Positions 50-12,250 of a DNA stretch of 16,505 nt are shown here, piece by piece. Source of the DNA: a virus; UHGV virus genome UHGV-0075529; one strand, 5' to 3'. The translations under genes and the position numbers were made by a program. Positions within the stretch are counted from its first letter, which is position 1. The number at the start of each line of letters is the position of its first letter. The notes beneath the pieces were generated by a model. The model made no database searches. It worked only from the letters and a program-made list of their open reading frames with translations, and was not told the DNA's origin.

Positions 50-448
50 TTACTCAACAGGTAAGGCGCGAGGTTTTCCTTCAGGATCAACCGCGACATA
101 CTTAAATAATGCTTCTGTCGCTTTATACCGTTGCCCGATTGGTTCAGACGCTACTTTTTTCACCCACACTTCAATATTAATGCTGACCGATGTCGTCCCT
201 TTCTGGACACAGCGTGCATAGCAGCACACCACATCGCCGACCGCAACCGGCCGTAAGAAAGTCATTCCTTCAACCCGCACAGTCACTACGCGACCGTGGG
301 CAATTTCTTTTGCCAGAATAGCGCCGCCAATATCCATTTGTGACATTAACCAACCACCAAAGATGTCACCATTGGCATTGGTATCGGCGGGCATGGCTAA
401 AGTACGTAAAACAAGATCGCCCTGAGGGACGTTATGTGTTGTAGACAT
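50..448 (-). CDS. yciA: Acyl-CoA thioester hydrolase YciA (hotdog fold)
   Basis: 132-aa ORF recognised as enterobacterial YciA from the full sequence (MSTTHNVPQGDLVLRTLAMPADTNANGDIFGGW...); chromosomal, not phage. Confidence 0.9.
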   Translation of the reverse strand: MSTTHNVPQGDLVLRTLAMPADTNANGDIFGGWLMSQMDIGGAILAKEIAHGRVVTVRVEGMTFLRPVAVGDVVCCYARCVQKGTTSVSINIEVWVKKVASEPIGQRYKATEALFKYVAVDPEGKPRALPVE

Positions 449-580: not shown

Positions 581-750
581 CTTTAACGAGTTCTGCTTTA
601 TCGTGTTTTATTGCGTTTAAAATTATTCCCGCCCAAACCGCGCCGTTACTCACTTCATTGTTTATAACGCTTTAACGTGTTTTATTTTGTATGGTTGCAA
701 TTTACGTGTTTTGTGTACACTGCTGAGTACATGGCTCAGGGGTGTACACG
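581..750. repeat. Repeat-rich junction upstream of int (candidate attL arm sites and int promoter region)
   Basis: CGTGTTTT at 602, 676 and 705; CTTTAACG at 581 and 671; 8-bp palindrome GTGTACAC at 713-720 and again at 742-749, just before the int start. Confidence 0.3.
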
Positions 751-1932
751 ATGCTCACAGATACAAAACTTCGCAAGGCGCTTGGGAAGCGCAGAGAGAG
801 TGTGGAAGTTCTCTCAGATTCAAACGGGCTTAACGTGAGGTTAAGCATAACTGGTGGCGTAACTTTCTTCTACCGTTATCGCTGGCAGGGTAAGCCGGTG
901 CAGCTCAGCATAGGTGAATACCCAGCCTACTCATTAGCGCAGGCCAGAGACCGCAGGCAGCAGTTTCGCGCCTGGCTGAGTGAGGGTTACGATCCACGCC
1001 AGAAGGTTCTGGTTGAGAAAGCGGAAAGGATAGAGGCGCTGACGGTTGACCAGGCGTATGAGTACTGGGTAAAGCATTACTGCATTCCCGAGGGTCTGAT
1101 AAAAATCGATGCCAATACCAGGAGCTTTCAGAAGCACATTAGCCCGCGCATTGGCAGGGCGATGGTTGATCAGACAGTCAAGGCTAACTGGCTTGATGTG
1201 TTCGACGAGATGGGGCGTTCGGTTATTACTGGTGAGATGCTGTCATTAATGAAGCGCGCGTTCCGGTTCTGCCATAACCGAGGGGTGATTAAAAACAACC
1301 CGCTTGAATCCTTGCGCAGATCAGACGTTGGTATTGCAGCGAAGATGAAGGAGAGGCGACTCTCCGACGAAGAGATCAAAGTGGTTTGGGATACACTTTT
1401 CGCGCTCCCTCCATCACAGCAGCTTGTTATACGGTTCATGCTCCTGACTGGGTGCAGGGCTGCAGAAATAAGGAAATCGCGCTGGGACTGGTACAACTTT
1501 AATGAAAAGACCTGGACGGTACCGGCTGAGGATTACAAAACAGGGAAGACGATCAGGAGGGCATTGCCTGAAGTGGCGATCAGGCTACTTCAGGAGCATA
1601 AAAGAGGTTCGGTCACTAAGCACGTTTTAACACCGGCTCAGTTCCGAGATAAAGAAGACATTCCACCTACTCAGGCTCTGGTATCGACCTATTCCATGCA
1701 GGTGATCAGAAAGACAGACATGAAACAGTGGTCTCTGCATGACCTGAGACGCACCGTGGCTACCAGGCTGTCAGAACTTGGCGCGCCACCGCATGTTATT
1801 GAAAAGCTACTCGGTCATCAGATGGGTGGGGTGATGGCCAGATACAACCTGCACGACTATATGGATGATCAGCGCGAGTGGTTGGGTATCTGGCAGAATC
1901 ACCTGCAGAGCATTATTGGGTATCAGCTTTAG
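751..1932 (+). CDS. int: Tyrosine site-specific integrase (P4-like, N-terminal arm-binding domain)
   Basis: C-terminal catalytic motifs HDLRRT, LLGHQ and tyrosine in VMARYNLHDY; N-terminus MLTDTKLRKA typical of this family. The ORF track starts at GTG 742; first in-frame ATG is 751. Confidence 0.88.
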   Translation: MLTDTKLRKALGKRRESVEVLSDSNGLNVRLSITGGVTFFYRYRWQGKPVQLSIGEYPAYSLAQARDRRQQFRAWLSEGYDPRQKVLVEKAERIEALTVDQAYEYWVKHYCIPEGLIKIDANTRSFQKHISPRIGRAMVDQTVKANWLDVFDEMGRSVITGEMLSLMKRAFRFCHNRGVIKNNPLESLRRSDVGIAAKMKERRLSDEEIKVVWDTLFALPPSQQLVIRFMLLTGCRAAEIRKSRWDWYNFNEKTWTVPAEDYKTGKTIRRALPEVAIRLLQEHKRGSVTKHVLTPAQFRDKEDIPPTQALVSTYSMQVIRKTDMKQWSLHDLRRTVATRLSELGAPPHVIEKLLGHQMGGVMARYNLHDYMDDQREWLGIWQNHLQSIIGYQL

Positions 1933-3490: not shown

Positions 3491-3536
3491 AAAAAAGGCC
3501 GCATTAGCGACCCGGTGATTTGTGCTGTCATGCGGC
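3491..3536 (-). terminator. Possible weak intrinsic terminator or attenuator (minus strand) between the 203-aa gene and the TraR-like gene
   Basis: 7-bp stem GCCGCAT (3498-3504) / ATGCGGC (3530-3536) with a long ~25-nt loop, followed on the minus strand by TTTTTT (plus A-run 3491-3496); the stop of the 203-aa gene sits in the stem. Confidence 0.3.
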
Positions 3537-4139
3537 GCGACCCGCCATTATTTCGGCCTTCTGCTCATCATCAAGGATGTCGTCAGATATAATCGCCACA
3601 CGGTTGCTCGCTGCCCATGAGACAGGCTCACTTTCTCGGATCGCCTTGTTCAGTGCATCAGCGGCATCAAGAACTGCTTGCGGAAGTGAGTAACAATCAC
3701 CGCCATCAGGAATTATTTCTTCGCAATGCTGCTCAACGTCGAAATATGGCGGGTAATTTGGTTCGCAGATCATCAGTTGGAGTTCGCCTGGCAGCACTGA
3801 ATTGTCCAGGCAGTAGTCAGCCAGCGAATCAAGGTCAAAGAAATACTGATCGCCATCGAAGAGAACGAGTGGCTCGCCCGCCCAGACTGCCCGCTCCATC
3901 TCGGAAAACTTTGTCTGGCGACTTTCTCGGTGACATTCTTCGCAGTAACCATGGGGGCTATGGATTGGGTGCTCTTCTGGTTTGTTTTTGCACTTCTGGT
4001 GCGTCGCGCCACACCACCGGGCCATGCGCTCGTCATTGCCCCAGAAGCGCCCGCCACGGTCTACCCACCCGGTCAAAGTCTGGATGCTGGCTGCTTCATC
4101 GCTGTCCATCATTACAATCTTTTCAGTTTTCATGCTCAT
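3528..4139 (-). CDS. Hypothetical phage protein, 203 aa, Cys/His-rich centre and acidic C-terminus
   Basis: Long ORF with ATGA overlap to the upstream gene; motif WCGATHQKCKNKPEEHPIHSPHGYCEECH suggests metal binding; no family recognised. Confidence 0.65.
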   Translation of the reverse strand: MSMKTEKIVMMDSDEAASIQTLTGWVDRGGRFWGNDERMARWCGATHQKCKNKPEEHPIHSPHGYCEECHRESRQTKFSEMERAVWAGEPLVLFDGDQYFFDLDSLADYCLDNSVLPGELQLMICEPNYPPYFDVEQHCEEIIPDGGDCYSLPQAVLDAADALNKAIRESEPVSWAASNRVAIISDDILDDEQKAEIMAGRAA

Positions 4140-4363
4140 GACTCCACTCCGTAGCGCCCATTCAGGCGACCAATTTCGCTGTTAAATTTGATAAGGCTGA
4201 TGCCTAGAGGCTCGACGATTTGGTGATATTTTCGGAGGATAGGCGGGACGACTTTATTCCAGTTCGGCTTGGGCTTTGTGCGCATCGCCGCTTTCAGTTC
4301 GTCACTGCATCGCCGGGCCTGAGAGTGCAAAGCATTCTCCTGTTCGGTGGTCATTCGCTTCAT
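4136..4363 (-). CDS. Hypothetical phage protein, 75 aa
   Basis: ORF with ATGA overlaps at both ends (Dam stop and 203-aa start). Confidence 0.55.
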   Translation of the reverse strand: MKRMTTEQENALHSQARRCSDELKAAMRTKPKPNWNKVVPPILRKYHQIVEPLGISLIKFNSEIGRLNGRYGVES

Positions 4364-4911
4364 GCTGCCTCCCGCCGGGCGATAAGTTTCGCTCCGAAAG
4401 TCATTAATACGTCGCGCTCCACGAAATTGGACTCGCAGTGTGTCCGAGGGAATGGCCGCCAGATGAGCAACATACTCCCTTTATTATTTCCCGATACCGG
4501 CTTACCGGTGACCGGGTTGATGAATTCCAGCCGCCCGGCAGTGATGAATCGAACCTCGCTCGCCGTCTCGATAGCCTCACGGAACCAGCCGACGGAAGTA
4601 TCAGCCGGAACCAGCATGACGGTGCCGATCTGATTCTTGCTCTCCGCTGCGGCTTTCTTCACGAATGGCGTGATGTCGCTGTAAGGTGGGTTGAGCCACG
4701 CATAGCCTGGAATGGTGAGGTAATCGGCCCACGGAGTTTCCAGCGTATTCTGCTCTGCGGTGATGAACTTGCGGCAGAGCGCGTTATGCGGCGCTGCTGC
4801 GGCGTCCAGTTGAAAGCAGAACTCTGCATCCAGCGCGGCAAATAGAGCCGGTGGTGTGCGCCATAAATCACGCTGATCTGCTGGCGTGTTACTTCCGGTG
4901 TAATCGGTCAT
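4360..4911 (-). CDS. dam: Phage-type DNA N6-adenine methyltransferase (Dam family)
   Basis: 183 aa with the catalytic NPPY motif (AWLNPPYSD) and overall phage Dam architecture. Confidence 0.8.
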   Translation of the reverse strand: MTDYTGSNTPADQRDLWRTPPALFAALDAEFCFQLDAAAAPHNALCRKFITAEQNTLETPWADYLTIPGYAWLNPPYSDITPFVKKAAAESKNQIGTVMLVPADTSVGWFREAIETASEVRFITAGRLEFINPVTGKPVSGNNKGSMLLIWRPFPRTHCESNFVERDVLMTFGAKLIARREAA

Positions 4912-5066
4912 GCCGCCTCCCTCTTATTGTTTAGCTCTTCCGCCAAGCGCTGGGCCTTGAGTGGGTTCTGGATGACCATGCCGCCGGGAACCACCCACCC
5001 GCGGCGTAAGTTCGAATAGACGAGCGTCACCGATCCCACGCTGATGTTGTCGTGTGCATTTTTCAT
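4908..5066 (-). CDS. Small hypothetical protein, 52 aa (not in the ORF track)
   Basis: Hand translation of the minus strand gives [52 protein letters not shown]; ATG overlaps the exo stop and its TGA overlaps the dam ATG; SD GGAGAG 8 nt upstream. The listed 84-aa ORF here is in another frame. Confidence 0.45.
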
Positions 5067-5743
5067 CGCCATTGCTCTCCGAAGGTGAAGCCAATCTCTG
5101 CCAGCGCCTCGTCCATCTTTTCGATGAACTCCGGCACCATCTCGTCGAAGTCGGCCATGTATTTTTCATCCCGCTCAACCACGACGTAATGCAGCCCCTC
5201 GCGCTTCATGCGAGGGTCGTAGTTGGCAAAGAACCAGGCTGGATTTTTGTTTACCCACATGCTGTATTGCACCTGGGCCATGTAGTCCGCTTTGATGGCA
5301 TCGAAGCCGCCGAGCCGGAACTTCATGAAGTCTCGGGAGGTGAACGGGCATTTCAGCTCGAGGCCAAATCCGTTACTGCACAGGCCGTCTGGTGAACAGG
5401 CGGTGCGCATGGTTTCATCGCGAAAGAGGATCGGTGATTCGATGACGCTCACTCCGGTCGTGAACTCAAACAGGGTGCGTGCGTCCTCTTCGTACTGCTT
5501 GCCCCAGGCAAGCGCCTTTGCATTCACCTCCGGCGCTACACCGGTGCATACCTCAGCGAGGAGGGTGTGGAAGTAGGACATCTTCATGCAAGTCCATTTG
5601 GTGCCGCTGCGCGGTTTTGAAATGACGTTATGAACCTCAGATGCGGTGATAACACCGAGGCGAAGTCGATGCCACTCCTCATCACCCTGTTCGATTCTGG
5701 TCACATCAATGCCGGTTCGCGCCAGGATGATTTCTGGTGTCAT
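5063..5743 (-). CDS. exo: Lambda-type 5'-3' exonuclease (Red-alpha / YqaJ family)
   Basis: 226 aa, near-collinear with lambda Exo as recalled ([14 protein letters not shown]..., [32 protein letters not shown]-terminal FGEQWR). Confidence 0.9.
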
Positions 5744-6669
5744 GCGGCAGCCCTCTGCTTGAGGAAACCAAGAGCCTTGACGGCCTCTATCTCAGTGAGA
5801 TCGCCAGACTCCAGAATGTCGCGCTTGAAGATACGGCGGCACAGAGGGAGAAGGTCCTCATCCCATGTTTTGTTCATGGCGATCAGGAGGTCGTTTATCT
5901 CTTTCAGCGTGTCGAGGCTGGCCGGGGTAATATCGCGCTCTGGCTGGCGCTCTGCAGCAAAGTTGATACCCTCCTCGCCCTCAGTGTTGACGTGGTCGAT
6001 AGCGGCATCCAGACGTTCGCGTCGCGGCCAGTATTTGGTTGCCTGCTTCACGACTGTCTTGAGGATCATCTGCTCTTCGTCCGTCACCCATGGACACTTC
6101 TTGCTGCTGTCCTGCTTGTACTTCTTCCAGGCTTCCGAACGGTCACGGATCGCGAAGATATCCGCTATGCGCATGGTATGGGTGAGATAGTCGCCGTCGT
6201 CAGTTTTAACCACGACATACGCCCCAACAATCTCACCGCGCTGCTCTGCGGTGTCGAAGTCGTTGTAGATGTGAATGGGTGGCTTATCTAGCCCCTCACG
6301 GCGGAACTGGTCGTTCTTCCGCACGATTGCAGACTGGCACCACTTAATTGCACCAGATTGCTGGGCGATGTGCATCAACCCCATGTAGCTAATATCGAGG
6401 CAGATAGCACCTTTTCGCGGCACAAGATAAGCAAGTTTCTGCGCCGGGTTCAGCGATATCCCGATTCCTGAAATATTCATCAGGGCGCTACGGGTGCTAG
6501 TCGGGTTGGAGAGAGCGATTTTCGCCAGGTAGTCATTGTTGGCGAAGATCTGCATGGCGAACTCAGATTCGCGCTTGAATTGAATGGACGGTTCGGCGCA
6601 AACCTGCTCGAACTCCGCCTTGAGTGGGTTAATCAGGTTGAATACCTGATCTGTAAGCAGGCCAGCCAT
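5740..6669 (-). CDS. recT: RecT-family single-strand annealing protein
   Basis: 309 aa directly upstream of exo with ATGA coupling; sequence pattern consistent with the RecT family; SD AGGAGGA upstream. Confidence 0.75.
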
Positions 6670-6693: not shown

Positions 6694-6978
6694 TTAAAAC
6701 GGGCAGCCGGTGCGGTGTTCCCAGTCGTGCTCTGCCTGGGCGTAGGCCACTGCCGAAACGAAGTCGTTGTATGCCTCGGCAGCTTTATCGCTGCGAAGTC
6801 CTTCGTATGGGCTGGCGTCGATCGGCACGGAGAAGTGGAAGAGACCGGACGGCTCTTTTGGCATCATGTCGATGATTTCCTGCGCCCGGTCGTCGATCCA
6901 CTTCTCTTTCTCGTCGGTGAGCTGCTGCTCAGCCCAGCGTCGATCTTCGATGCGGTCGTAAGTGAGGAATGCGTTCAT
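6694..6978 (-). CDS. gam: Gam-like host-nuclease (RecBCD) inhibitor
   Basis: 94 aa; N-terminus MNAFLTYDRIEDRRWAEQQL resembles lambda GamS [22 protein letters not shown] as recalled; sits just upstream of the annealing protein as in lambda. Confidence 0.55.
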   Translation of the reverse strand: MNAFLTYDRIEDRRWAEQQLTDEKEKWIDDRAQEIIDMMPKEPSGLFHFSVPIDASPYEGLRSDKAAEAYNDFVSAVAYAQAEHDWEHRTGCPF

Positions 6979-8557: not shown

Positions 8558-8691
8558 AAACCCTCTTGGCCTTATCGCGGCGAACGGAACGGTTAATACA
8601 AGACTTCAACGCATTTATTCAGTGTTTCAATGGGCGGTGGATGGCCGCCGGTTGTCATAACTTGAGCCACTCGTAAATGACCCCAGGTATG

Positions 8692-8714
8692 AAAAAAGCC
8701 GCTGGTTAGGCGGC
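8692..8714 (-). terminator. Intrinsic terminator (minus strand), tL1-like position downstream of the pL-proximal genes
   Basis: Stem GCCGC (8698-8702) / GCGGC (8710-8714), loop TGGTTAG, followed on the minus strand by TTTTTT (plus A-run 8692-8697). Confidence 0.65.
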
Positions 8715-8873
8715 TCTGTTAATCCATTCTCGTGCGTTGCGTCGGCACATCCATGCCAGCTTTACCCAAAGGTCATGAAACCCATCACCACGCACTGATG
8801 CTCGACATTTTTTGCGGTACTGCCTGTAATCTTCACTGCACTCGGCAGCATATTTATCAGTTGTGCTTTGCAT
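8706..8873 (-). CDS. Small hypothetical Cys-containing protein, 55 aa (not in the ORF track)
   Basis: Hand translation: MQSTTDKYAAECSEDYRQYRKKCRASVRGDGFHDLWVKLAWMCRRNAREWINRAA; SD GAGGGT upstream; its stop lies in the loop of the 8692-8714 terminator. Confidence 0.4.
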   Translation of the reverse strand: MQSTTDKYAAECSEDYRQYRKKCRASVRGDGFHDLWVKLAWMCRRNAREWINRAA

Positions 8874-8930
8874 GCTCTTACCCTCTGTCGTTACCCGCTG
8901 ATGCGGGAGAAATTCTTTATCTATCAGCTG

Positions 8931-9143
8931 CTACAACTCATCACGAATCTGTGAGAGTGTGCTGATCGCCTGGTAATGACCGCGACGCTGCTCTTCTGTT
9001 TTGAACGCGCGCATATCGTCTTTTATCGATGCGATTGCCTTATTCAGAACTTCCACTTGCGCTTCTTTAATCGCCTGTTTGCGTGGCTTCTGACGCTTCT
9101 TAGGAAGGTCTCTTAAACACGCCGGAATGTATGTCTGAGTCAT
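8931..9143 (-). CDS. Basic 70-aa protein, first gene downstream of pL (N position; antiterminator identity unproven)
   Basis: ORF with SD AAGAGGA; Lys/Arg-rich stretch LPKKRQKPRKQAIKEAQ near the N-terminus; position matches lambda N. Confidence 0.5.
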   Translation of the reverse strand: MTQTYIPACLRDLPKKRQKPRKQAIKEAQVEVLNKAIASIKDDMRAFKTEEQRRGHYQAISTLSQIRDEL

Positions 9144-9348
9144 AAAAAATCCTCTTGTGATTCAGCACAGCCCACTCAGCTTCGAATGGACTGGAATAAA
9201 TCTTTTTTTCGCTTTGCCATAATTGCCGCTCTCCCTGAGCCCGCCTATGGTCCGACGCATGGTTTACTGTCGCGCCGTTCGACTGACCGAATCTCCACTT
9301 CGCCGCTGGCTAACTTCGCTCAGCTGTCGATGTTTCGTTTCGATGGGG

Positions 9349-9430
9349 TAAATTTAGCGTGATGCTAAATTATGCGCAATAGCAAAATGCTAAATTGTTG
9401 AATGGTTTTATTTAGCGTATTGATTAATAA
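9349..9430 (-). promoter_or_regulatory. OL operator triplet with pL promoter
   Basis: 17-bp sites TTTAGC-N5-GCTAAA at 9353-9369 (perfect), 9378-9394 and 9411-9427 (imperfect); on the minus strand -35 TTGCGC (9379-9374), 17-bp spacer, -10 TAAATT (9356-9351). Confidence 0.6.
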
Positions 9431-9466: not shown

Positions 9467-9490
9467 AAAAAAGCCCGCGCGATGGCGGGC
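9467..9490 (-). terminator. Intrinsic terminator downstream of cI (minus strand)
   Basis: Stem GCCCGC (9473-9478) / GCGGGC (9485-9490), loop GCGATG, followed on the minus strand by TTTTTT (plus A-run 9467-9472). Confidence 0.6.
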
Positions 9491-9510
9491 TTGAGGGGTT
9501 TTGCGTGAGG

Positions 9511-10188
9511 TTATGGGATGTTTAGTATTTTGGCATCAACCACAACGCCGATGATTTTGCAGTTTCCATTAATTTCTAGCATTGGATATGCGGGGTTAAG
9601 GGGCTTTAGGAAGCGTCTGCCGGCATCGATTACAAGCTTCTTAAAGGTCGCTTCGTTATCGCCTTCTAGCTTCGCGACAACCAGCTTTCCGTTGCGCGGC
9701 TCGACTTCAGGATCAACAAGTATCGCTGCTCCCTCGGGTATGCTCAGTCCAGCCGGGGAGGTCATAGAATCCCCTTTAACGTCCAGCCAGAATGAATCTT
9801 CTGAGCAGTCAACAGTCGTGTCATACCAGCGATCTATCGCTCTTCGGTGATAAGGTTCTACAGCTTCCATCCATTGCCCCGCGCTTACCCAGCTGATTAC
9901 AGGATAACTTCCTTTTGTCTCGTTCAGTCCTCGAAATGCAACGTTCGAAGGTTCTTCACTGGCGTGTAAAACATCCATCCAGCCAAAAGGCAGATCAAGC
10001 GCAGTTTCAATTTTGCGAGCCATCTTATCGCCGATATTGCGATGAGGGTTTGGTCCCAGTAGCTGGCTAAGCGCAGCCGGACTTGTCTCGATGAGCTCGG
10101 CAAACTGCGCTTTGGTCATTCCAGACTCGTGCTGACGCTTCTCGTACAGCGCTTCCAGGTTGGCTTTTCTGATTTCTTTATTTTCCAT
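9511..10188 (-). CDS. cI: cI-type prophage repressor (N-terminal HTH, C-terminal S24 LexA-like autopeptidase)
   Basis: Start taken at ATG 10188 (MENKEIRKANLEA...); C-terminal domain has the catalytic Ser in GDSM, a downstream Lys, and an Ala-Gly candidate cleavage site (SWVSAGQW). The ORF track runs to 10305 across the operators. Confidence 0.88.
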   Translation of the reverse strand: MENKEIRKANLEALYEKRQHESGMTKAQFAELIETSPAALSQLLGPNPHRNIGDKMARKIETALDLPFGWMDVLHASEEPSNVAFRGLNETKGSYPVISWVSAGQWMEAVEPYHRRAIDRWYDTTVDCSEDSFWLDVKGDSMTSPAGLSIPEGAAILVDPEVEPRNGKLVVAKLEGDNEATFKKLVIDAGRRFLKPLNPAYPMLEINGNCKIIGVVVDAKILNIP

Positions 10189-10304
10189 ACCTGCATTGTT
10201 ACTGCTTTTAGCAAAATGATAAATATGCAAATTGCTAAATGATGCTTGCGTAGTATTTAGCATAACGCTAAACTCCAAATCAAACGACTCACCCGGAGAC
10301 ACCA
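10189..10304. promoter_or_regulatory. OR operator triplet with divergent PRM/PR promoters
   Basis: 17-bp sites at 10207-10223 (TTTAGC-AAAAT-GATAAA), 10223-10239 (weak) and 10256-10272 (perfect TTTAGC-ATAAC-GCTAAA); PR candidate -35 TTGCGT (10246-10251), 17-bp spacer, -10 TAAACT (10269-10274). Confidence 0.7.
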
Positions 10305-10538
10305 ATGAGCACTGAACTACACCGCTGGCGCAAGGCCGCCACTACCGACGAATGGGCGCAGCTCGCAAAGTTGGCTAACACGACGCCAGGTTACCTGGAC
10401 CAGATCGCCTACGGAAATCGCCGGGCATCTCCAGAAATGGCATCTGCTATCGAGAAAGGCACGAAGAATTTTCACCGCCAGGCTCCGGTCCTAAAAGAAA
10501 GCCTGGTATTCGCATCGCCGCGTGATACTGCGGCCTAA
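10305..10538 (+). CDS. cro: Cro-like / YdaS-family HTH DNA-binding protein
   Basis: 77-aa ORF divergent from cI across the operator region; SD GGAGA 7 nt upstream; HTH-like segment EWAQLAKLANTTPGYLDQIAYGNR. Confidence 0.65.
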   Translation: MSTELHRWRKAATTDEWAQLAKLANTTPGYLDQIAYGNRRASPEMASAIEKGTKNFHRQAPVLKESLVFASPRDTAA

Positions 10539-10555
10539 CCACGAAAGGGAAAGCA

Positions 10556-11122
10556 ATGCATTCACTTGCGTATCAACAGAGTACCGGACTTGAACAACGT
10601 CCGTTGATTTCGATTTATCAAAGTGTTCCGCGTAATAACCGTAAGCTAACTCGAATACGGGAGGCAGTTAAGGCCTGGCAAAAAGCTACGCCGGGCCAGT
10701 CTCAGGTTCACATTTCTCAGCTGGTTGCGAAAGAGTGGCTGGCGCGCGGCGGGAAGGGGTTGTTACTGGCAGGTTCTGAACACAACACGAAGCAGAACTT
10801 CTTCCGGATGATTAACGATCCGGGCCCGAAGAACGACAAGGGGTTGATGCTACTGATCCCCGTCATTATCGACGTGATGGCGCGGGATAACGAGAAAGTG
10901 GCGAGAGAGTTCGGTCTGGTCGCAAAGACTGAGGCCGAACTGATAGCCGAGGCCATGAAAGAGTGCACTGAAGCGCATCAGGCGAAGTTACTTGGTCAGC
11001 CGATACAACGCCTTGAGAAAGAGGTGAGAGAAGCTGCTGAAGCACTTCTGCGCTTTCTGCCCACTGAATCAATCGCCGCGGTGGTGACAAGTCTGGCCGC
11101 TATGGCGCCGGGAGTTATGTGA
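10556..11122 (+). CDS. YdaT-like protein in the CII position
   Basis: 188 aa immediately after the cro-like gene; segment KEWLARGGKGLLLAGSEHNTKQNFFRMIN resembles Rac YdaT as recalled. Confidence 0.55.
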   Translation: MHSLAYQQSTGLEQRPLISIYQSVPRNNRKLTRIREAVKAWQKATPGQSQVHISQLVAKEWLARGGKGLLLAGSEHNTKQNFFRMINDPGPKNDKGLMLLIPVIIDVMARDNEKVAREFGLVAKTEAELIAEAMKECTEAHQAKLLGQPIQRLEKEVREAAEALLRFLPTESIAAVVTSLAAMAPGVM

Positions 11123-11211
11123 TGGGAAGTATCAAAAACGGCGAAAGCCAGTCTGCTCGAACAGAACTGGCCTTCAGATGCAAATCGTGTGCACTCATTG
11201 CAGGAGGAATA

Positions 11212-11358
11212 ATGGCAAAAAATCCACGCTATTACCATACCGCTGTACATAAAAACATAACCCGCGACCGCTTCATCCGCTCGGTTAACCCGATTGTGGC
11301 AGAGAAGATGCGCGCCATCCTGGAAGAACTGAAACGTAAGGAGAGTGGCCGTGGGTAA
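11212..11358 (+). CDS. Small hypothetical protein, 48 aa (or 78 aa from ATG 11122)
   Basis: Strong SD AGGAGG 5-6 nt upstream of ATG 11212 (MAKNPRYYHTAVHKNITRDRF...); the ORF track extends to 11119 overlapping the upstream stop. Confidence 0.45.
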   Translation: MAKNPRYYHTAVHKNITRDRFIRSVNPIVAEKMRAILEELKRKESGRG

Positions 11359-12250
11359 CGTATCCAATTTAGCCGAAGCCAGAGAGGCCAGAAGGCTCCA
11401 GAAACCGCGCACGAATGACGGTAAGGGGTTTGCCTTGCTGCACCGTAAAATTATGGATGTGCCGTTCTACAAGGACGCTGAGGCGGCTCATTTATGGGTT
11501 CACCTGCTCCTGCGCGCTAATCATGAACAGACACTGGTATCGACTGATGTCGGCGATGTGATCTGCGAGCGCGGAGAGTTCATTACCGGGCGAAACACGC
11601 TGGCAATGGAAACGGGTTTGACCGCTGATCGCGTTAAATCACTGCTCCGTAAATTCCAGAACCTGGGCATGATCACCACCAAATCGAACAACCGTTTTAC
11701 TGTTCTAAAAGTGGTCAAATATGACGAATATCAGTCAAATTTTTGTCCAGCCGATGTCCAGCCAGTGTCCAGCGCAAACGCAGCTATATCAATGCCTGCG
11801 GAGGCGGAGTGTCCAGCCGATGTCCAGCCAGTGTCCACAGATAACAATATATTAAATAACTTACTACCTAACGGTAGTAAGTATGTCGCAAATGACCAGA
11901 AACCCGCTGAAGAGAAAAAGTCCCGTTTGTCATGCGATGAAGTATGGCAATGCCTGAAAGACGAACTGCCTGAAGCCCGGGGATGGAGATGCCTCACTGA
12001 TGAGCGACGCAATCTGATCCGCACCTTCTGGGGTAAGGCTAACAAAATTGCCCGCAACCTGGACGGCAAGCCGATGGATATGGACGGTTTCAGAAGCTAT
12101 CTGCGCTACATCGCTCAGAACTGCCGCTGGATGCTTGAAGACCGACCAGACCAGAAATCCGGGAAGACCTGGCGCCGCATGAAATTCGATAAGTTCCTGA
12201 CCGAAAAGCTCTACATCGAAGTGCGCGAAGGGGATCGTGATGACCGCTGA
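11345..12250 (+). CDS. Replication initiator / replisome organiser (O-like) with the origin inside the gene
   Basis: 301 aa with N-terminal DNA-binding-like region, a central linker encoded by the iterons (CPADVQPVS twice), and a conserved phage C-terminal domain; sits directly upstream of the helicase. Confidence 0.7.
   Translation: MAVGNVSNLAEAREARRLQKPRTNDGKGFALLHRKIMDVPFYKDAEAAHLWVHLLLRANHEQTLVSTDVGDVICERGEFITGRNTLAMETGLTADRVKSLLRKFQNLGMITTKSNNRFTVLKVVKYDEYQSNFCPADVQPVSSANAAISMPAEAECPADVQPVSTDNNILNNLLPNGSKYVANDQKPAEEKKSRLSCDEVWQCLKDELPEARGWRCLTDERRNLIRTFWGKANKIARNLDGKPMDMDGFRSYLRYIAQNCRWMLEDRPDQKSGKTWRRMKFDKFLTEKLYIEVREGDRDDR
11744..11882. repeat. Candidate replication origin: six phased iterons, AT-rich tract and a 24-bp palindrome
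   Basis: TGTCCAGCC-type 9-mers at 11744, 11755, 11766, 11810, 11821 and 11832 (11-bp spacing; 28-bp perfect direct repeat 11744-11771 = 11810-11837); AT-rich ATAACAATATATTAAATAAC; palindrome ACTTACTACC-TAAC-GGTAGTAAGT (11859-11882). Confidence 0.6.

Follow-up and report, generated by a model that had tools for sequence, protein, structure and literature searches.

The methyltransferase gene and its family

The DNA described here is a stretch of 16,505 nucleotides from the virus genome UHGV-0075529, referred to below as the window. Its minus strand carries, at 4360-4911, an open reading frame (ORF) of 183 amino acids (aa) that runs from ATG to TGA and is preceded within a few bases by a strong Shine-Dalgarno sequence, GAGGGAGG. 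An earlier reading of the sequence (the original prediction) had taken this gene, dam, for an orphan phage N6-adenine methyltransferase gene in an early-left operon, and its coordinates are exact. The results support an ordinary phage DNA adenine methyltransferase, which has every computationally checkable feature of the families PF05869 and TIGR01712.

The assignment is carried by two protein profiles. Against PF05869, "DNA N-6-adenine-methyltransferase (Dam)", the protein scores 192.7 bits where the cut-off is 28.1 (E 5e-57, profile positions 1-167 of 169). Against the NCBIfam equivalog TIGR01712, phage_N6A_met, it scores 167.2 bits where the cut-off is 97.05 (E 2e-49, positions 2-164 of 165). 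Scores of this size put the family match far beyond chance. The PHROGs class of the protein is phrog_111, DNA methyltransferase, and its best PADLOC model is the orphan methyltransferase (oMTase).

The catalytic motif was examined by alignment with the enzymes of phages T1 and HP1, a VT2-type enzyme and about 60 representatives of the family. The NPPY of motif IV lies intact at residues 74-77, in the same register as in the T1, HP1 and VT2-type proteins, and a motif-I-like LDAAA lies at residues 35-39. Among the 61-64 diverse members aligned, T19, D36, N74, P76 and R127 are invariant, while P20, A39, W61, P75, Y77, W109, G126 and F130 are at least 90% conserved. The catalytic motif and all family-invariant residues are thus intact in the window protein. 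This agrees with the intact NPPY of the original prediction, and the disruption of the motif that was looked for is absent.

The gene is also already known. NCBI holds the identical protein under the correct name, as "phage N-6-adenine-methyltransferase [Escherichia coli]", with the accessions MEY0667471.1 and MFW7518290.1. The same protein is found on 11 public contigs, and its cluster at 90% identity has 2914 member sequences.

The name "Dam" is a functional label here and should not be read as evidence of close homology to the Dam of E. coli. The Dam enzymes of E. coli and T4, together with DpnM, form a different family (alpha class, PF02086) that resembles window Dam only in general fold. 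PF05869 is the sole Pfam match of the window protein at E <= 0.01, and its structural alignments with EcoDam and T4Dam cover 105-110 residues at 9% identity. The E. coli and T4 enzymes have DPPY and a dedicated DNA-recognition domain, whereas window Dam has NPPY and lacks that domain.

An AlphaFold2 model of window Dam, built on a 61-sequence alignment, forms a single compact alpha/beta domain (mean pLDDT 94.5, pTM 0.90). The model is a confident prediction of an adenine-N6 methyltransferase fold of the class-I type, dependent on S-adenosylmethionine, in one small domain that lacks a target-recognition domain of its own. No solved relative of the family came up when the PDB was searched by sequence.

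The prophage and its integration site

Over the 12.9 kb shared with a metagenome contig the window is 100% identical to it; with two NCBI assemblies the identity is 99.95-99.99%. In the matching contigs the element adjoins yciA-tonB-yciI-kch-yciY-cls, a flank that matches E. coli K-12 at 100% identity. On the identity of the flank, the window is part of a lambdoid E. coli prophage integrated beside yciA, and the host appears to be E. coli. The window takes in only part of the prophage. No tRNA was found at the integration site.

A related prophage at the same yciA site, that of E. coli 20A24, has Bet (L002:10003-10848) where the window has RecT. The segments 8587-9351 and 10513-11435 of the window are 99% identical to this prophage, while dam is only 82% identical. 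This is sharp mosaicism inside one integration-site lineage.

The early-left operon

The features of the locus are collected in Table 1. They include a textbook immunity region, with a cI-like repressor between three oL and three oR operators.

Table 1. Features of the window in order of position.
Feature	Position	Strand	Matches and remarks
yciA (thioesterase)	50-448		
Integrase	742-1932	+	
Terminator-like hairpin and T-run	3496-3513	-	Just after orf203; next minus-strand site after 9471-9492
orf203, function unassigned	3528-4139	-	phrog_18739/11053; last gene of the overlapping block
orf75, function unassigned	4136-4363	-	phrog_303
dam, phage N-6-adenine DNA methyltransferase, T1/HP1/VT2 "Dam" family	4360-4911	-	PF05869, TIGR01712
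DUF1317 protein, lambda orf60a homologue	4908-5072	-	PF07026 E 4e-25; adjoins Dam in relatives
YqaJ/lambda-exonuclease-type recombination exonuclease	5063-5743	-	PF09588 E 1e-27
RecT-family single-strand annealing protein	5740-6669	-	PF03837 E 3e-28; TIGR00616
GamL-type host nuclease inhibitor	6694-6978	-	phrog_1050 E 1e-45; PF28165 GamL on identical gene (contigs L039-L042)
Lambda Kil homologue, 46 aa	8026-8166	-	PF06301 on identical contigs; between orf79 and orf323
oL/pL, three operators ATTTAGC-N5-GCTAAAT	9352-9428	-	Match the three at oR
Terminator-like hairpin between cI and oL	9471-9492	-	Just 3' of cI
cI-like repressor (HTH + S24 peptidase)	9511-10263	-	PF00717, PF01381; start uncertain
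oR, three operators ATTTAGC-N5-GCTAAAT	10206-10273		
cro-like gene	starts 10305		Followed by YdaT-family gene, replication genes, DnaB-type helicase
YdaT-toxin-family protein, cII position	10556-11122	+	PF06254 on identical gene in contig L040

The placement of dam in an early-left operon agrees with the operators, since three oL sites lie upstream of it and match the three oR sites that flank the cI-like repressor. Leftward from oL the order is small ORFs (including the Kil homologue), orf323, GamL, RecT, exonuclease, DUF1317, Dam, orf75 and orf203. All genes from 8931-9143 down to 3528 lie on the minus strand. Between recT and orf203 each gene overlaps the next by 4-10 nucleotides (nt), mostly as ATGA. 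The Dam ATG overlaps the DUF1317 stop by 4 nt, and the Dam stop overlaps the ATG of orf75 by 4 nt. Crude consensus scans for promoters and terminators found no terminator-like site on the minus strand between those at 9471-9492 and 3496-3513 and no promoter-like site near dam. The predicted co-transcription of dam with the recombination genes from pL, as had been claimed, is well supported by this gene anatomy.

In lambda, the counterpart stretch reads gam-bet-exo-orf60a (DUF1317)-orf63-orf61-ea22-ea8.5-xis-int. By this gene order, Dam sits in a variable accessory slot just after exo-DUF1317.

Some neighbouring genes need further comment. The Kil homologue falls under the ORF length cut-off used for the window. 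The start of the cI-like gene is uncertain because there is an in-frame ATG at 10188, while gene callers take 10263. The gene in the cII position had no hit in the Pfam scan of the window; its counterpart in E. coli 20A24 (L002) is annotated "toxin YdaT family protein". Beyond orf203 lie a TraR/DksA zinc-finger protein, a DUF4222 protein and a putative excisionase. The last is a 71-aa ORF, predicted by gene callers too, with an 87% identical counterpart in E. coli 20A24 that is annotated only as a helix-turn-helix regulator.

Orphan status

No restriction endonuclease or PADLOC defence component of a recognisable family was found by Pfam and PADLOC among the ORFs of the 16.5-kb window, as had been stated from the sequence alone. 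Within the window, Dam is therefore an orphan methyltransferase. T1, HP1 and VT2-Sakai likewise carry a member of the family as a lone gene.

Dam could in principle supply the modification in a restriction-modification system or another two-part defence, with its partner in orf203, orf75, orf323 or beyond the part of the prophage that the window holds. Several neighbours indeed have no known function. One of them, orf203, is rich in cysteine and histidine (for example HGYCEECH) and matches only PHROGs without assigned function, with no Pfam or PADLOC match. However, no neighbour matches a nuclease or defence model of PADLOC or Pfam, and the best PADLOC model of Dam is itself the orphan type. 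The neighbours change among relatives while Dam stays, and the family is found alone in the three phages just named. A restriction enzyme under pL control would moreover be silent in the lysogen and so could not defend it. Such a hidden partner is extremely unlikely.

Relatives, fusions and replacements

The Dam family is very large. It comprises 8245 clusters at 50% identity (E <= 1e-3), and 2117 phage records carry matches to it by tblastn; megablast of dam against the phage collection returned nothing, so that relatives came up by tblastn only. The closest homologues, at 75-96% identity, are in 32 genomes of Enterobacter, Leclercia, Citrobacter, Klebsiella, Raoultella, Scandinavium and others. 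In these 32 genomes the position is kept, with the recombination module on one side of Dam and the TraR/DUF4222/int end on the other. In a neighbour-joining (NJ) tree, 64 family members form a star-like pattern, and sub-clades are not resolved by specificity.

Within E. coli, 346 of 5426 complete genomes have a homologue of dam at the DNA level, and 258 of these cover at least 80% of the gene. Among the matches listed, the homologues are annotated as (phage) N-6-adenine-methyltransferase, and most adjoin a DUF1317 gene. The downstream neighbour orf75 often follows Dam, but not always. It is absent from three loci (L012, L013 and L015).

An example of fusion is found at locus L012, where positions 4576-6546 form one ORF of 656 aa. 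Its N-terminal part is a C5-cytosine DNA methylase (PF00145), and its C-terminal third is a Dam domain 87% identical to window Dam. The ORF is thus an apparent bifunctional m5C and m6A phage methyltransferase, to judge from its two domains. Nine loci (L009-L012, L014, L015 and L020-L022) have 1.2-1.5 kb extra between DUF1317 (exo in L021) and the Dam match. The fusion ORF was read in L012 only, and the other eight likely carry the same fusion. The cluster representatives nearest to window Dam are similar fusion proteins of 253-663 aa. NCBI records of the fusion type often annotate the 200-aa Dam part only; the window has the stand-alone form.

The opposite event, replacement, is seen in Citrobacter sp. 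OP27. There a homing-type endonuclease (NUMOD4 + HNH_3; L034:6001-6495) replaces the body of Dam, and the chimeric ORF keeps the first 17 and the last ~9 Dam residues. DUF1317 and orf75 still flank it. A truncated form is found in the chromosomes of E. coli B and BL21 (at ~537.5 kb), where only the first 63% of dam is matched, under the annotation "DNA N-6-adenine-methyltransferase". This is presumably a prophage remnant.

Such replacements and remnants, and the fact that accessory genes at this position can be dispensed with, raise the question of whether window Dam is itself an inactive relic carried in a mosaic prophage. The gene has the marks of an intact one: a full-length ORF with a strong ribosome-binding site, an undamaged motif IV, all the residues that are invariant in the family, and a confident structure model. 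The identical protein recurs on the 11 contigs mentioned above, within a cluster of thousands of sequences. A relic is scarcely credible on this evidence.

Substrate and target sequence

The characterised members of the family provide the basis for predicting the target. One is Dam of phage T1 (M.EcoT1Dam, YP_003925.1, 237 aa). Like window Dam it is a phage-encoded orphan of the same Pfam and TIGRFAM family, and the two have in common the blocks NTP..D.W.TP, LDAAA, NPPYS and GNNKGS, at 42% identity over 166 residues. They differ in that window Dam lacks two parts of T1 Dam, an extension of 45 aa at the N terminus and an insertion of 14 aa. T1 is also a virulent siphovirus, with its dam in a different transcription unit, ~7 kb from recE/erf. 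T1 Dam does not need host Dam to methylate GATC in the phage DNA: T1 DNA from a dam- host is GATC-methylated, and this methylation is lost when the T1 gene is deleted (PMC10470545).

The closest characterised relative is the Dam (175 aa) of the nin region in VT2-Sakai, Stx phages and P22-like phages. It is of similar size, is likewise an orphan and belongs to lambdoid E. coli prophages. The VT2-Sakai protein (NP_050531.1) is 50% identical to window Dam over 177 residues. Its gene is flanked by NinB/Orf and NinE in the nin region, which reads rightward and so implies expression from pR, whereas window dam lies in the pL operon. We infer that this gene, orf32, encodes M.EcoVT2Dam, which is listed as GATC-specific (PMC6602927).

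The third member is Dam of phage HP1 (orf13, NP_043482.1, 173 aa), of the same family and of similar minimal size, with 41% identity to window Dam. Its gene is the last of a temperate phage's early operon. HP1 differs, however, in being a P2-like Haemophilus phage whose dam follows replication genes in a rightward early operon. The HP1 enzyme is cited as Dam-like (PMC7556043).

The T1, HP1 and VT2-type enzymes, the last represented in pairwise comparison by the Sf101 homologue, are 31-37% identical to one another, which is less than each is to window Dam. Because window Dam is closer to each of the three reported GATC enzymes than these are to one another, GATC is most likely its target as well, as the parsimonious prediction from these comparisons. 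GATC occurs 61 times in the window against 88 expected by a Markov estimate, a count that is uninformative on specificity. As to the substrate, the fusion of the Dam domain to a C5-cytosine DNA methylase in close relatives argues for DNA.

Several points weigh against a GATC-specific DNA enzyme. The target would follow from 40-50% identity, in a family without a separate recognition domain or a solved structure. The equation of VT2-Sakai orf32 with M.EcoVT2Dam comes from annotation and position. E. coli has its own Dam, so that a GATC enzyme would seem redundant unless host methylation is limiting in lytic growth. Finally, the nearest solved fold to the model is PCIF1, an RNA cap adenosine methyltransferase, and rRNA adenine methyltransferases match the model about as well as DNA enzymes do.

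The structural neighbours lead to the alternative that the substrate is RNA, for instance rRNA, possibly with a partner encoded by the co-transcribed DUF1317 gene or orf75. The best neighbours include PCIF1, Erm, KsgA/DIMT1 and METTL5, and small ORFs overlap both ends of dam. There is also a precedent in the Stx-prophage enzyme M.EcoPA8orf6770P / M.EcoGV, whose prophage gene likewise bears the annotation of a DNA adenine methyltransferase. It is co-expressed with a small ORF directly upstream (gp6/PNB-2), needs this partner, prefers 16S rRNA and tunes induction (PMC10810198).

This parallel was rejected as an analogy only. The Stx-prophage enzyme is an MT-A70 protein with DPPW and has no sequence relationship to window Dam, which has NPPY, matches PF05869 only and gives no MT-A70 match. 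The T1 enzyme, a member of the family, methylates phage DNA in vivo, and the fused relatives point to DNA in the same way. An obligate partnership with DUF1317 or orf75 was rejected from synteny: lambda lacks a Dam but still has DUF1317 behind exo, and orf75 is not consistently found with Dam, being missing from some loci that have it and present in L034 without the Dam body. Methylation of RNA instead of DNA is highly improbable.

Another alternative is an active DNA adenine methyltransferase whose target is not GATC but some other short motif, or whose specificity is relaxed, with broader protection from restriction than a mere supplement to host Dam would give. With such a target, window Dam would no longer seem redundant beside E. 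coli Dam. The single small domain without a dedicated recognition domain is compatible with it, and so is the star-like tree, in which the three GATC enzymes form no tight clade around window Dam. Phage and prophage adenine methyltransferases of relaxed specificity do exist.

Those that can be placed, however, sit in other families, and window Dam was rejected as one of them (Hia5/Hin1523, M.EcoGII and the phiP27/OS31 type). Hia5 is nearest to EcoDam, DpnM and T4Dam and has DPPY. M.EcoGII belongs to class beta. The phiP27 protein homologous to the Serratia OS31 enzyme has 352 aa and is encoded upstream of stx, at a locus other than that of window dam, and tblastn of the loci gave no match between it and window Dam (E <= 1e-5, at least 50% of query length). 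M.EcoGIX, a plasmid-borne, single-strand-specific enzyme, was rejected as a relative too. All three traceable characterised PF05869 members are reported to act at GATC, and they bracket window Dam in sequence. A target other than GATC, which nothing known of this family backs, is accordingly judged unlikely.

Proposed role in the phage life cycle

The favoured explanation, held with good though not full confidence, is that window Dam is a small single-domain DNA N6-adenine methyltransferase of the GATC type, an orphan in the pL accessory slot that acts on replicating phage DNA.

In this model, the cI-like repressor bound at oL would keep dam silent in the lysogen. In E. coli ST131, likewise, a prophage homologue of Dam, whatever its family, was not transcribed (PMC4659465). 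On induction or infection, a leftward transcript from pL would carry gamL, recT, exo, DUF1317 and dam, and Dam would be translated from its own strong ribosome-binding site. Using S-adenosylmethionine, the enzyme would then methylate adenine at N6 as the phage DNA replicates, with GATC the most probable site, and some host DNA would be methylated incidentally.

Lambda DNA from dam+ cells is only about half methylated, as host Dam is limiting. The phage enzyme may therefore top up a host Dam that is outpaced by lytic replication, so that packaged genomes would be fully methylated. The benefit could be that the phage DNA is protected in the next host from enzymes that cut GATC and are sensitive to methylation, that MutH does not nick it in a hemimethylated state, or both.

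A further idea is that the position of Dam beside GamL, RecT and the exonuclease is functional and no accident of the accessory slot. Through a burst of phage Dam in lytic growth, instant methylation of nascent GATC sites would take the hemimethylated signal from MutH and blind mismatch repair of the host, and so might boost RecT recombination between diverged lambdoid genomes. If true, Dam would be an enhancer of recombination and mosaicism, beyond an anti-restriction device. In other members of the family, proximity to recombination genes is seen in some cases only: VT2 dam adjoins NinB/Orf, but T1 dam is distant from recE/erf and HP1 dam comes after replication genes. A functional link of this kind is quite improbable.

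Significance

The evidence supports the original prediction as essentially right, and the gene as an ordinary one. The two effects that it named, protection from restriction and changes in host epigenetic regulation, are standard ideas for the Dam family and would apply here by analogy. The window adds one more lambdoid prophage whose orphan adenine methyltransferase is of the T1 type and predicted to be controlled from pL, which has little import beyond correct annotation.

The family as a whole is very large, yet it has few characterised members and no solved structure. A methylome for the early-left clade would fill a small gap, which concerns GATC specificity across the family and the reason why a phage of a Dam-positive host carries a Dam of its own.
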